Source of the DNA: an uncultured Desulfosarcina sp.
GTDB taxonomy: Bacteria > Desulfobacterota > Desulfobacteria > Desulfobacterales > Desulfosarcinaceae
Length of the DNA stretch: 64,000 nucleotides
Direction of reading: 5' to 3'
Assembly: GCA_963674945.2 (NCBI GenBank)
Contig: CAXXWQ010000002.1
Location: 288,001-352,000 of the forward strand
Positions 50,649-55,993 of the stretch are shown piece after piece. The translations under genes were made by a program, and so were the position numbers. Below the pieces are notes generated by a model. The model had not been told where the DNA came from and did not search any database. It saw only the letters and a program-made list of their open reading frames with translations. Numbering within the stretch: position 1 is the stretch's first letter; every line of letters starts with the position of its first letter.

Positions 50649-50831
50649 ATGTTTGGAATAGGCATGCCTGAGTTGATTATCATATTGGTCATTATTCTCA
50701 TCATTTTCGGCGTGGGAAAGTTGCCGGAGATTGGTGGCGGCATGGGAAAGGCGATCCGAAATTTCAAAGACGCATCAAACAAAACCGAATCCGAAGAACC
50801 CGAAAAGCTGGAAGACAACAACAAAGCCTAA
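50649..50831 (+). CDS. tatA: Twin-arginine translocase TatA/E
   Basis: [15 protein letters not shown]...[27 protein letters not shown]. Confidence 0.95.
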
Positions 50832-51130: not shown

Positions 51131-52639
51131 ATGACTGTCCAGCTGCAGATCGATCCCATCACCCGCATCGAAGGCCACATGGCCGTCAACATTACCGTCG
51201 ATTCTCATCGTGTCATCGAAGCGCATAGCAAAGGCGAAATGTTTCGCGGGTTTGAAGTCATTTTAAAGGGCCGCGATCCCATGGATGCCCAGCAGATCAC
51301 CCAGCGGATCTGCGGCGTCTGCCCGGTGTCCCACGGTACCGCCTCCATTTTGGCCCAGGATGCCGCTTACGGCGTATTGCCGACGGAAAACGGCCGACTG
51401 CTTCGAAATCTGATTCTCGGCGCCAATTACATTCAATCCCACATCATTCATTTTTATCAGCTCAGCGCGTTGGACTACATCGATATTACGGCCATCTGTC
51501 AATACACTGGACGTGATCCGCTCCTGCAGGATCTCAAATCCTGGGTCGAATCCGGGCAAAAGGCCAATGTGCTATACCCGGCGGCGCCCTTTTTACCGCG
51601 CTACGACGGCGATTACATCCCTGACACCGAACTGAATCTATCGGCCATCCATCATTACCTGAAATCCCTTGAGATGCGCGCTTTGGCGCACCAGATGGGA
51701 GCGCTCTTTTCCGGTAAATTGCCCCACGCGGCCAGCCTTGTGCCCGGCGGCGTCACCGAAGTCGTGACCGCCCATAAAATTGCGGCCTGCAAAAGCATGC
51801 TGACAAAACTGCGGCAATTCATCGATTCCACCTATTTGCCCGACGTCCTGGCGGTCGCTTCCGCCTATCCGGAATATTTTGAAATCGGAAAGGGGCCGAA
51901 AAATTTGCTTTCCTATGGTGTCTTTTCCGAAAAGGATGCCACAACCTTTGTCCCGGACGGGGTATGGATGGACGACCGGCTCCACGGATTTGATAGGGAA
52001 AAGATCACCGAAGACGCCTCCCATGCCTTTTACCGGGCCAACCAACCGTTCGCCCCGGACGCGGGAGAGACACAACCGGCTCCGGACAAAAAGGGCGCCT
52101 ACTCCTGGGTCAAGGCACCGCGTTACGATGGACATGTGTTCGAGGTGGGACCACTGGCGCGCATGTGGATCGCATATAAAAAGCAGCCAAGTTCCGATAT
52201 CGGCATATGGATGGGCCGTCTTTTGGATCGACTGGATCGTGATCCGGCGGATCTGTTTTCCACCATGGGGCGTCACGCCACTCGGGCGTTGGAGTGCAAA
52301 CTCGTGGCCCAGCGCTGCGAACAATGGCTGTCCCAACTCAAACCGGGGGAATCTGCATGCAATGATTTTCGCATTCCCGAAACGGGTGTCGGGATCGGTC
52401 TCACGGAGGCCCCGCGGGGGGCGTTGGGACACTGGTTGAAGATAAAGAACCATAAGATTCACCGCTATCAGTGTGTGGTCCCCACCACCTGGAATTGTTC
52501 TCCCAGGGATGGAAAGGGTCAGCCCGGTGCCGTGGAGCAGGCATTGGTCGATACCCCCATCGGCGATGAGAAAAATCCCATTGAAGCGGTCCGGGTCGTT
52601 CGTTCTTTTGATCCGTGCCTGGCATGTGCCGTTCATTAA
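51131..52639 (+). CDS. [NiFe]-hydrogenase large subunit
   Basis: DPITRIEGH; L1 RICGVCPVSH; EAPRG; L2 SFDPCLACAVH followed immediately by TAA. Confidence 0.96.
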   Translation: MTVQLQIDPITRIEGHMAVNITVDSHRVIEAHSKGEMFRGFEVILKGRDPMDAQQITQRICGVCPVSHGTASILAQDAAYGVLPTENGRLLRNLILGANYIQSHIIHFYQLSALDYIDITAICQYTGRDPLLQDLKSWVESGQKANVLYPAAPFLPRYDGDYIPDTELNLSAIHHYLKSLEMRALAHQMGALFSGKLPHAASLVPGGVTEVVTAHKIAACKSMLTKLRQFIDSTYLPDVLAVASAYPEYFEIGKGPKNLLSYGVFSEKDATTFVPDGVWMDDRLHGFDREKITEDASHAFYRANQPFAPDAGETQPAPDKKGAYSWVKAPRYDGHVFEVGPLARMWIAYKKQPSSDIGIWMGRLLDRLDRDPADLFSTMGRHATRALECKLVAQRCEQWLSQLKPGESACNDFRIPETGVGIGLTEAPRGALGHWLKIKNHKIHRYQCVVPTTWNCSPRDGKGQPGAVEQALVDTPIGDEKNPIEAVRVVRSFDPCLACAVH

Positions 52640-52714
52640 GTAAATCTTTGTCCAGGGGTCTGGCTTTGGACTCCTCCTGAAAGGGTAGATGCACTGCGAA
52701 CACGGTAAACGTCA

Positions 52715-52966
52715 CAGGGGTCAGAAGCCAGTATTCAGGAGACAGAATGAATCTGAGTCGCTTCGCTCCGTCGATTGGATAATACGGTTCGAGCCGACCG
52801 AAGGCGAATACCTTATTCTCGTATCTGACTTCATTTTCCCGAAGTCAGGTTTTAGTTCAAACCGGTTGAAAGCCGGCGGCAGCGCTGAATTCTGACTCCA
52901 GGATTCTTGTAAAAATCATACGGCAGAGCCAATGAAATTTGACTTGGTCCAGAGGGCCAGGTTTTC
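52715..52966 (-). repeat. Host repeat family A, copy 3 (reverse orientation, carries the 65-bp insert)
   Basis: GTCGCTTCGCTCCGTCGATTGGA...CCGAAGGCGAATAC is the reverse complement of the copy 1 core. Confidence 0.85.
52820..52884. mobile_element. 65-bp mini-element flanked by CT on both sides, copy 2
   Basis: Identical to 16277-16341; followed by the same CTGAATTCTGACT. Confidence 0.75.
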
Positions 52967-52989
52967 TACAACTCAATAAAAGGATTTCT

Positions 52990-53910
52990 ATGTCACCCAT
53001 TTCCCGAAGAGAATTTCTTTCCATCGGTGCAAAATTGGCCGCGATGATGAGCCTCTCACCGGTAGTCGTTGCCGATATCGCGGACGCATTGGAAAAATTG
53101 ACCACAGGTACGGTGCCGGTGGTATGGCTCCAGGGACAAAGCTGTTCGGGTTGCTCCGTCTCTTTGCTCAACGCGGACCATCCGGATCCGGCCGAGCTGT
53201 TGACCGGGTATATTTCCCTGATGTTTCACAGTACGCTCTCGGCGGCGACCGGCCATCGCGCCATGGACGTCGTCGACGACACCATCGCCGCCGGCGAGTT
53301 TCTCCTCGTCGTAGAGGGAAGCGTGCCGAGGAAAATGCCCAGTGCATGTGTAATGGGGGAAAAGTCCATCGCGGAGATGATTTTGCAGGCTGCCCGTCGG
53401 GCCAAGGCCGTCGTTGCCGCAGGGACCTGTGCGGCCCATGGCGGGATTCCCGCTGCCGAAAACAATCCCACCGGTGCCGTCGGGGTTCCCCAATTCCTTG
53501 CGGAAAGCGGCGTGAATCGCCCGGTCATTGCCATTCCCGGGTGCCCGATGCATCCCGACTGGCTGGTGGGCACCTTGGTTCACGTGATTCAATTCGGTAT
53601 TCCCGCACTGGACGCCATGGGGCGGCCGAAGGTGTTTTTCGACACCCTTGTTCATGATCAATGTCCCCGGTTTGCCGACTACGAGCGGGAGAAGTTCGCC
53701 AAGGCCTTTGGTGAACCGGGATGCCTTTTCAAGCTGGGATGCGTCGGTCCCAATACCCATGCGGACTGTTCTACGCGAATGTGGAACGCCGGCACCAATT
53801 TTTGTATCAAATCAGGCGCTCCCTGCATCGGATGTACCGAGGAAACCTTTGCCCGGCACGTCAACTTTCCCTTTTACCGAAAAAACGAAGATCTGACTTC
53901 TCAGGGATGA
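52990..53910 (+). CDS. [NiFe]-hydrogenase small subunit, Tat-exported
   Basis: Tat motif SRREFL; CSGC, GTC, PGCP, HDQC, CLFKLGC and ADC...NFC...PCIGC cluster ligands; no C-terminal TM helix. Confidence 0.95.
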
Positions 53911-53914
53911 ATCG

Positions 53915-55603
53915 ATGAAACTTCACACCAAACTCACTGTTTCCCTGGTCGTGGTGCTGATGGCCGTCATGGGTGGCGCCCTTGCATTTCAATATGGCGC
54001 CATGGACCGGCTTATCGCCGAATTTGCCAGTTCCAACGTTCAGCTGCTGAAAGAAAGGGAAGAGAGGGCCGCAGAAAATATCTTCTCATCCATCGAACGG
54101 GCCGTGGCAGGTTCCCTGGAACGTGGAGAGATGGAAAAGTTCAGCCGAATCCTGCAGCAACAGCGAAATGTCCGTGGTTTGATGGAATTCTCTCTCCATG
54201 ACCGGCAAGGTGTGGTCACCCATTCATCCAATGATCAATTCCTGAAAAAAACCTTGCCAAAACACATCCAGGATCGTTTGGGTCGCCAGACGGACATGGA
54301 ACTGACATGGACCGATGACGCCGTATCCATATTCAAACCGCTGTTGGTCAACAATGATTGCGTTCGCTGTCATGTGGGGTGGCAACCCGGTGAGATCGGC
54401 GGCGTCCTTCATTTCCGTTTTTCCAAGCAGACGTTGGCGCGGGCCGAAGCGCAGGCCGCGGATATCGTTTCCACCATTCACGCCTTCATGATGAAATACG
54501 TCGTGGCGACGTTGTCGGTCGTCGTGCTGGTCCTGGTCATCGGGATTCACCTTCTGGTTACCCGGTACGTGTCCAAACCCCTTACGCGGATCAACGTGCG
54601 GCTCCACGATATCGCCGAAGGCGGTGGTGATCTGACGGCACGCATCGATGTCACGGGTCGTGACGAAATCGGCAGATTGGCCATCTCGTTCAACACCTTC
54701 ATCGAAAAACTGCAGGAGATGATTGGTCGAATTGGAAAAAATGCGGTGGTGCTGCACGACTCCTCCAGCCGGCTTTTCGAACTGTCGGACCAGATTTCCC
54801 GGGAGGCCAACCAAATGTCGTCGCGATCCCGAAGCGCTGCCGCGGAGATTTCCCGCATGAACGACGGCATGACTTCGGCCGCCTCCATCATGGCGCGTTC
54901 ATCATCCAATGTCGGCGACATGTCCAGTTCAACGGAACAGATGAACAGCCATATCGATGCCATCGTTCAGAGTACGGAAAACGCCCATCGGGTCAGCGAA
55001 GAAGCCGTGGAAAAGACCAAAAATGCCACGATCATGATGGAAGAGCTGGACACGGCGGCAAAGGACATCGTCTCGGTCACCCAGACCATCACCGACATCT
55101 CTGAACAGACCAACCTGCTGGCCTTGAATGCCACAATCGAGGCTGCGCGTGCCGGCGAGGCGGGAAAAGGGTTTGCCGTCGTGGCCAATGAGATCAAGGA
55201 GCTGGCCAAACAAACCGCCGAATCGACAAGATCGATACACGATAAGAACCTGAGAATCCAACAGTCGTCCAATCGAACGATGCAGGAGATCGAGGCGGTC
55301 AGTCAGACCATTGCCAATGTCAACGAGATCGTCTCTTCCATCGCATCGTCCATCCAGGAGCAGTCTCTGTTGACCCAGCAGATCGCCAATAACATTTCCC
55401 AGGCAACCGAAGGGATTCTGGACGCCACGACCAATGTCACGGAGAGCGCCCAGGAGAATGAAAAAATCGTCGAAAAAATTTCATCGGTCAATGTGGCGGC
55501 AGAGCAGGTGGCCAAGAACAACCAGAGTATCAACCAAAACGCCGATGAGATGGTATCTTTGGCCAAGCAGCTCAAGGATATGGTGGGGAGATTTACAGTG
55601 TAG
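53915..55603 (+). CDS. Methyl-accepting chemotaxis protein with periplasmic CxxCH heme c motif
   Basis: TM1-sensor (CVRCH)-TM2, HAMP (GDLT..DEIG.LA..FN) and signalling tip [27 protein letters not shown]. Confidence 0.95.
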
Positions 55604-55619
55604 AATTTTTTTAGGTGAA

Positions 55620-55810
55620 GAAAAACTATGTCCTCTGAGACTAGGTCATCGTTCATTGGCTTTGCCGAACGATTGTTAGAAAAATCCAGGAGTCAGAATT
55701 CAGAATCCAGAATAATGTATTCGCCTTCGGCTCGATCTATCTTATTCAATCGATTAAGCGAAGCGACATCAAATTTCATTCTGGCTCCTAAATACTGTCT
55801 TCTGACTCCT
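55620..55810 (+). repeat. Host repeat family A, copy 4
   Basis: CAGGAGTCAGAATTCAGAATCCAG-GTATTCGCCTTCGGCTCGATC...AGCGAAGCGAC...TTCTGGCTCCT...TTCTGACTCCT. Confidence 0.85.
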
Positions 55811-55993
55811 GCAGCTCCCCCGCGACCGTAGCGCATCACACTTTCCAAGGGGCGCCTAAAGCCTGACCAACTGGCTCCCGTTTTTACTTTCCTTTTCCCA
55901 CCGGACTTGAAAAAATTCAACTTTGTTTGGTATTACCAGAGGCGATTTCATCCCTGCCGGATCTGTTTCGGCAATCGTCGTGTGGAAAAGACT

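Follow-up and report, generated by a model that had tools for sequence, protein, structure and literature searches.

A group 1-type [NiFe]-hydrogenase linked to a putative heme c chemoreceptor: a candidate periplasmic H2-sensing module in Desulfosarcina and other bacteria

Background

A three-gene module occupies positions 51131-55603 of a 64,000-nucleotide stretch (the window) of contig CAXXWQ010000002.1 from an uncultured Desulfosarcina sp. It encodes the large and small subunits of a [NiFe]-hydrogenase (L and S in the shorthand for gene order used below) followed by a methyl-accepting chemotaxis protein (MCP; the receptor, R). The linkage of enzyme and receptor recurs well beyond this genome, and we propose, with a probability of roughly 0.62, that the module is an extracytoplasmic H2 probe in which the hydrogenase reduces the His/Met heme c of the receptor and steers the flagella. 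That the conserved unit is sensory in some form, all sensory readings being summed, we regard as very probable. It also seems rather likely that the enzyme belongs to an independently evolved class of extracytoplasmic H2-sensing [NiFe]-hydrogenases, derived from group 1 uptake enzymes, which hands its electrons straight to a chemoreceptor heme and serves as an equilibrium H2 probe.

In the proposed scheme, the Hyp machinery of the genome would mature the large subunit without protease cleavage, and the LS dimer would leave the cytoplasm via twin-arginine translocation (Tat). Once exported, the hydrogenase would bind to the chemoreceptor encoded next to it, at the Cache domain that would carry the heme c. 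Electrons would pass along a wire of three [4Fe-4S] clusters to the distal cluster and from there to the receptor heme, whose redox state the H2 level would set. Reduction of the heme would make Met73 bind, like Met60 of GSU0582/0935, and this change would be relayed through the second transmembrane (TM) segment and the HAMP domain to CheA, steering flagellar motility. The midpoint potential of H2 is -414 mV, and a heme at -251 mV, as in GSU0935, is calculated with this value to be half reduced near 0.3 Pa H2, which lies within the range for anoxic sediments. With a GSU0935-like potential and half reduction near 0.3 Pa, the pair would therefore act as an equilibrium H2 probe.

Results

The initial annotation of the window had proposed that this locus mediates hydrogen taxis, and conserved gene adjacency was set beforehand as a test by which the proposal could be refuted. 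The adjacency holds in both directions of search and across phyla. The module itself is patchy, with an orthologue of at least 60% identity in four of the 64 other genomes of the family. On the enzyme side, a large-subunit search yielded 29 genome loci whose large subunit has no C-terminal extension, counting three twice-fetched loci once and omitting two with a cut-off large subunit; the receptor adjoins the enzyme in 23 of the 28 that could be scored, and one more locus is cut short. The taxa found in the search for linked loci include Desulfobacterales, Planctomycetota, Magnetococcales and a Gammaproteobacterium. Metagenomes contributed a further 80 loci, 19 of them too short to score; the receptor is present in 56 and absent from five, two of the latter being conventional extension-bearing enzymes. 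The proportion among scorable extension-less metagenome loci is thus 56/59, although these loci are redundant rather than independent. A check of unlinked enzymes in 401 genomes of the phylum comprised 17 of the 22 high-scoring large subunits without a linked receptor match, plus three weaker ones. No sensor gene was seen near any of 19 extension-bearing relatives (flanks of about 5 kb, some cut short), and at L122, where the large subunit is extension-less, the contig ends after S.

The receptor side gives the same picture. A sensor profile searched against the 401 genomes produced 42 matches outside this genome, all of which were examined. The 18 best directly follow L-S. None of the eight ranked next, which are paralogues (one of them from a contig of 2.4 kb), is linked to the hydrogenase, nor are the 14 weakest; the latter are CxxCH sensors, and the scanned ones among them are mostly kinases. 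Of the other two, L093 is linked but divergent, and L092 is short and unlinked. Among 351 Planctomycetota genomes the profile matched four times, each time after L-S. Adjacency of small subunit and receptor persists in an inversion (L043) and in the order S-R-L, but not in L181. Two ideas about these loci were discarded: the small-subunit ending FPFYTK, tried as a marker of receptor loss, is also found alongside receptors, and P0151 and P0154, picked from eight longer proteins as natural small subunit-receptor fusions, look frameshifted, are single-contig records and were not used. Locus L048 lies on a 3.4-kb contig labelled as an archaeon; its module is nearly identical to L049, and the contig is probably mis-binned.

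In the window, the open reading frames (ORFs) bear out the arrangement first described, namely large subunit, Tat-signal small subunit and MCP, all on the + strand, with the MCP ATG 4 bp past the small-subunit TGA (Table 1). The CVRCH motif does lie at 54359-54373 (residues 149-153) between two TM segments, and the ORF list and profile searches agree that the locus holds no cytochrome, membrane anchor or hyp gene. Three features are additions to that description: the large subunit has no extension, tatA lies upstream, and the L-S gap is a dispersed repeat.

The receptor has a transmembrane MCP architecture (TM, sensor, TM, HAMP, signalling domain) and a C-arm of 147 aa, as in most MCPs of this genome; a regular-expression search found no methylation-site motif in it, which is uninformative. 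Among the 24 MCP-like ORFs of the genome, it alone has CxxCH. An AlphaFold2 model of the periplasmic domain places the CxxCH helix (H119-124) between strands E108-116 and E133-142, and its Foldseek matches are WalK, KinD, DctB, CitA, GSU0935 (3b42, E 3.3e-4) and GSU0582 (3b47). The model thus shows a single Cache domain with CxxCH on an inserted helix, as sCache_heme is defined in the accessible text of a preprint (bioRxiv 10.64898/2026.02.01.703092). No Pfam sensor family matches the domain at E<=0.01, PF11845 (DUF3365) and PF21563 included; weak relatives of the sensor profile do match PF21563, and one also matches PF11845, below the cut-off. A sequence search of the PDB with the profile returned only designed helical repeats.

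Covariation supplies the candidate distal ligand. The sensor family comprises 196 representatives at E<=1e-30, and of the best 150, the 123 that have CxxCH all have Met73 as well, and 24 of the 25 that lack CxxCH also lack Met73; the remaining two have a gap at this position. This covariation gives good support to the prediction that the receptor binds heme c and that Met73 is its switch ligand. In GSU0935 the heme ligands are His144 and Met60, with Met binding upon reduction, and heme potentials of -156 and -251 mV have been reported, the latter for GSU0935 (PMC8396549). The residues D148 and R151, within and beside the heme motif, are kept in 70/73 linked heme forms and 17/17 linked heme-less forms, and in one of ten unlinked paralogues; together they may form the patch at which the hydrogenase docks.

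Most full-length representatives of the sensor family end in an MCP domain. The same domain is also found fused to hybrid histidine kinases (three representatives), a SpoIIE phosphatase (one) or an MCP with hemerythrin (P0021, P0076, P0124, P0121, P0070). A second CxxCH occurs in the variants L065:10483-12609 (in an inserted loop; Magnetococcales), P0018, P0084, P0121 and P0122.

Distance correlations over 77 loci link the sensor to the enzyme. Sensor distances correlate with those of the small subunit at rho 0.84 and of the large subunit at 0.76, compared with 0.11 for the receptor's own signalling core; the partial correlations are 0.58 (S, controlling for L) and 0.22 (L, controlling for S). 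These correlations, like the D148/R151 pattern and the small-subunit tail of the heme-less branch described below, are signs of a physical partnership of hydrogenase and receptor, all of them indirect. The loop that follows the distal-cluster Cys was also considered, as a marker of heme status, and rejected because it varies by lineage.

The large subunit keeps the nickel ligands C61/C64 (QRICGVC) and C496/C499 (DPCLACAVH) together with E14 and R429, all invariant in 28 clade rows. Its stop codon comes directly after DPCLACAVH, leaving no cleavable C-terminal extension, which accounts for the lack of a maturation protease at the locus. Ligands to the small-subunit clusters are C52, C55, C147 and C185; C260, C272, C279 and C282; and H222, C225, C245 and C251, and their assignment to individual clusters is assumed from an alignment to 1cc1_S and the usual residue numbering. 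With all Fe-S ligands kept, including the medial-cluster Cys that the alignment shows to be shared, the small subunit is predicted to hold three [4Fe-4S] clusters. Across the compared small subunits the whole wire is invariant, distal His included. A TM-window scan of the small subunit found none, so there is no membrane anchor.

Both Cys motifs (L1 and L2), the catalytic Glu and Arg and a small subunit with a Tat signal and three predicted clusters place the enzyme with group 1-type [NiFe]-hydrogenases. Its nearest known system is the group 1a NiFeSe enzyme (D. baculatum 1cc1/4kl8; D. vulgaris HysAB), the best match of both subunits, which is likewise soluble, Tat-exported and provided with the medial-cluster Cys; the best PDB matches of the large subunit are 4kl8/1cc1. 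The module differs in having Cys (codon TGC) at the selenocysteine (Sec) site, no extension, L before S, a dedicated receptor and a separate position in trees, and in falling short of the cut-offs of the HysA model NF045518 (545 bits against 780) and of the HysAB-type small-subunit model (295 against 470). The missing extension and the gene order also set it apart from canonical groups 1a and 1b: all 19 extension-bearing relatives have 15-17 extra C-terminal residues, and the 17 with a visible small subunit have the order S-L. HoxBC-HoxJ (Cupriavidus necator) and HupUV-HupT, of group 2b, resemble the module as two-subunit NiFe enzymes without a large-subunit extension beside a signal transducer. 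In contrast to these cytoplasmic proteins with an adjacent PAS kinase and group 2 sequence, the module has a group 1-type sequence, a Tat signal, a membrane receptor with a periplasmic heme domain, and chemotaxis rather than a histidine kinase as its output; its large subunit is 30% identical to the genome's own group 2-like enzyme with PAS kinase, located elsewhere. The module thus appears to work like a regulatory hydrogenase without being group 2b; it also appears to descend from group 1, where neither the HysA nor the canonical 1a/1b definition fits it. Extension-less large subunits are natural in H2 sensors and in some group 4 enzymes, which still use Hyp, and group 1 is not on the list of such enzymes in the accessible part of that article (PMC7294309).

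A quick tree puts 49 of 50 extension-less rows on one side, with a support of 93 in the Shimodaira-Hasegawa-like approximate likelihood ratio test (SH-aLRT). For a careful tree, 19 near-copies and two long branches were removed, which left 68 of the 89 rows. The root of this tree is unreliable; the extension-less enzymes need two changes in it, and a single origin appears in 1% of bootstrap trees. The Sec enzyme L045 falls among the extension-less enzymes, and 23 conventional rows group together to their exclusion with a support of 100/98. Both trees keep the extension-less enzymes apart from HysA-type and 1b-type rows.

FliG is encoded in 29 of 30 module genomes compared with 141 of 251 (56%) background genomes of the phylum, kin not being independent, and the single FliG-less module genome is 64% complete. 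At L049 the MCP has been cleanly deleted, in a genome with no FliG match. The window's genome encodes flagellin, FliG, three CheA and heme c assembly genes; on C4, a protease gene and hypD accompany a second hydrogenase, of the conventional periplasmic type.

Table 1. Features of the module and its surroundings (positions in the window)
Feature	Position	Strand	Basis or remark
[NiFe]-hydrogenase large subunit, 502 aa	51131-52639	+	PF00374 3e-154; NF033181 673 bits (cut-off 600)
Small subunit, 306 aa	52990-53910	+	TIGR00391 255 bits, over cut-off; PF01058; PF14720
Tat motif SRREFL of small subunit	53002-53019	+	sequence
Chemoreceptor, 562 aa: TM1, periplasmic Cache-type sensor, TM2, HAMP 214-268, signalling domain 358-518	53915-55603	+	PF00672, PF00015, TM windows
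Periplasmic sensor domain, predicted single Cache/PAS-like fold	53999-54484	+	AlphaFold2, predicted local distance difference test (pLDDT) 86.4
Met73 in GSLERGEM, predicted distal redox-switched heme ligand	54131-54133	+	covariation
Heme c attachment motif D148-C-V-R151-C-H	54356-54373	+	sequence
tatA	50649-50831	+	TIGR01411, over cut-off; 300 bp upstream of large subunit
L-S spacer, 350 bp, filled by genome-wide intergenic repeat	52640-52989	.	116 blastn matches in genome
Terminator-like hairpin inside L-S spacer	52823-52850		hairpin scan
Second intergenic-repeat copy	55604-55811		inverted relative to first copy; the two flank small subunit and MCP

Discussion

The known hydrogenase-transducer pairs, HoxBC, Geobacter Mvh and [FeFe] group C2, are cytoplasmic, and the characterised H2 sensors are cytoplasmic transcription regulators. 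The Geobacter Mvh enzyme, which we take to be cytoplasmic and to work with a soluble MCP, is unlike the module in this respect, and group C2 belongs to another metal class than the NiFe enzyme described here. In the published record, the Mvh NiFe cluster of Geobacter sulfurreducens includes the MCP gene MvhV, with no sensing role given in the text available (PMC7894505). HydDB lists [FeFe] group C2 as 'chemotactic (putative)', with H2 sensing via MCPs predicted and the role given as undetermined, and its Table 1 contains no MCP-linked NiFe class in the text consulted (PMC5037454). A 2025 neighbourhood study tabulates, without discussion in the portion available, an 87-gene MCP cluster near NiFe large subunits (PMC12727194), and hydrogenotaxis has been shown in Methanococcus maripaludis, no receptor being named in the accessible text (PMC3817446). 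GSU0582/GSU0935 and DcrA (sCache_heme/Mcp40H-20) share with the module sensor the periplasmic Cache fold, the CxxCH helix insertion and the candidate Met switch; they are described as stand-alone redox or gas sensors, whereas the module sensor is tied to a hydrogenase and falls in no Pfam sensor family. The sCache_heme preprint contains no occurrence of 'hydrogenase' in its accessible text. The initial annotation had known of no characterised example. In so far as our literature search, whose scope stopped short of most subscription papers and of supplements (possible homes of neighbourhood tables), found no description of this periplasmic module, that statement stands; hydrogenase-MCP links as such had already been noted (Geobacter Mvh) or predicted (FeFe C2).

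Several observations weigh against an H2 probe that reduces the receptor heme and steers swimming. Five genome loci (L037, L038, L042, L049, L053) and three extension-less metagenome loci have the enzyme without the receptor; FliG is still present in three receptor-less genomes, and G469, with the enzyme but no receptor at the locus, has no sensor match anywhere in its genome. Plain co-inheritance also yields correlated distances, and a saturated signalling core could inflate the contrast between the coefficients. In 11 of 30 module genomes nothing but the module enzyme matches PF00374 at E<=1e-40, a count in which group 3/4 enzymes mostly score below the threshold and many genomes are incomplete; this is compatible either with uptake or with H2 sensing in cells that do not use H2 for respiration. 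The genome encodes proteins of the cytochrome c3 type, which could accept the electrons. The gas-channel positions are, by an assumed position mapping, the standard Val63/Leu111 and not the bulky Ile/Phe of the regulatory type. In this strain, a repeat with a terminator-like hairpin separates L and S.

The Planctomycetota branch belongs among these points, for it retains the pairing although its receptors have neither CxxCH nor Met73. In these receptors (L054-L060, L063, L197 and a subset of L205-L227), D-M-x-R-L replaces CxxCH, and the small subunits of all 19 heme-less receptors carry an extra H-x-x-x-Y (H-x-V-x-Y) tail that is found with none of 71 heme forms, a match that represents one lineage and one evolutionary event. 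From the sequences, heme c appears dispensable in this branch, which may signal by non-covalent heme or by contact; speculatively, the heme-less forms could bind non-covalent heme via a conserved Met and the tail His. Under our proposal, the Planctomycetota variant would have swapped heme c for contact with the small-subunit tail or for a shared non-covalent heme. The hydrogen-taxis proposal of the initial annotation therefore keeps its core, given the conserved adjacency and the almost uniformly flagellated module genomes, but heme c reduction is not the only route, because the Planctomycetota pairing persists without CxxCH and Met.

Other explanations share part of this evidence. An ordinary soluble uptake hydrogenase might feed the periplasmic cytochrome pool, the co-transcribed MCP reading the redox state of the pool like DcrA/GSU0935 (energy taxis) with no direct contact. 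The closest solved relatives are indeed high-activity NiFeSe uptake enzymes, and the receptor-less loci, the genomes with a sole strong PF00374 match and the c3-type cytochromes would all suit it. We nevertheless consider it unlikely, given that the window locus holds neither cytochrome nor membrane partner, that the sensor has diverged in step with the small subunit and the output core has been exchanged, that the D/R patch is kept only in linked receptors, that tail and heme loss coincide, and that the genome has another uptake-type enzyme. Somewhat less likely still is that the hydrogenase docks as a co-receptor and signals through a change of shape, as in HoxBC-HoxJ, the heme serving for tuning or to register a second signal (O2, NO, CO or ambient redox) and not as the electron acceptor. 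GSU0582 and GSU0935 are described as binding CO and NO, and the heme-less receptors keep linkage and D/R patch while their partners gain a tail; yet CxxCH and Met are kept in most of the sensor family, the complete wire with its distal His is invariant, and the heme-less forms might hold the non-covalent heme just mentioned.

The unit could also sense H2 while its MCP feeds a chemosensory system that governs some cell function other than swimming. Three CheA systems, among them a CheA-CheW3-REC hybrid without an MCP in its cluster, and the fusions of the sensor domain to hybrid kinases and a SpoIIE phosphatase allow for this, but the enrichment of FliG in module genomes and the predominance of MCP domains among the full-length representatives make it improbable. 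Finally, the family might work as proposed while the L-S repeat has uncoupled or silenced the operon in this strain. The 350-bp insertion with its hairpin is suggestive, as is the receptor of the closest relative, L031, broken into three frames, but here none of the three ORFs is broken and no ligand has been lost, and promoter and terminator scans are at chance level (9 terminator-like matches found against 7.8 expected); we give this very little credence. The L-S gap is 5-162 bp in 41 of 42 other loci, the remaining locus being inverted, and the repeat-filled spacer is strain-specific. S-MCP junctions overlap by 4 bp in several loci. The split MCP, at L031:4925-6614, reflects decay or an assembly error.

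If the H2-probe reading is correct, bacterial hydrogenotaxis would have in this module its first molecular receptor, steering consumers towards H2 and possibly fermenters away from it, towards syntrophic partners. The module offers a three-gene, directly testable candidate for H2 taxis in flagellated anaerobes of several phyla and bears on how sulfate reducers and syntrophs locate H2 or partners. Among the enzymes that would be entered in databases as group 1 uptake hydrogenases, some may be sensors. For heterologous work, moreover, a NiFe enzyme that is soluble and periplasmic and needs no maturation protease would be useful.

Some neighbouring genes and other systems deserve mention. The upstream tatA was considered as a module member and rejected, as blastp of the scanned related loci gave no TatA match. 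A second candidate H2 sensor, at G000:C4:399662-403558 (L142), has group 2-like S and L genes, the large subunit ending in DPCMVCTVH plus 7 residues and no Tat motif being seen; a PAS histidine kinase lies downstream and an MMPL-HATPase fusion upstream. At G000:C4:365875-372311 (L141), a CheA with three CheW stretches and a receiver domain, in a cluster without an MCP, is a candidate partner for many orphan MCPs. A further set of group 1a-like hydrogenases (L107, L108, L110-L121) has small subunits that, where visible, are without a Tat signal, and in most a conserved gene pair of about 220 and 290 aa follows. By sequence this pair appears to resemble MetV/MetF, and it would presumably then form part of a possible H2-dependent methylene-tetrahydrofolate reductase.

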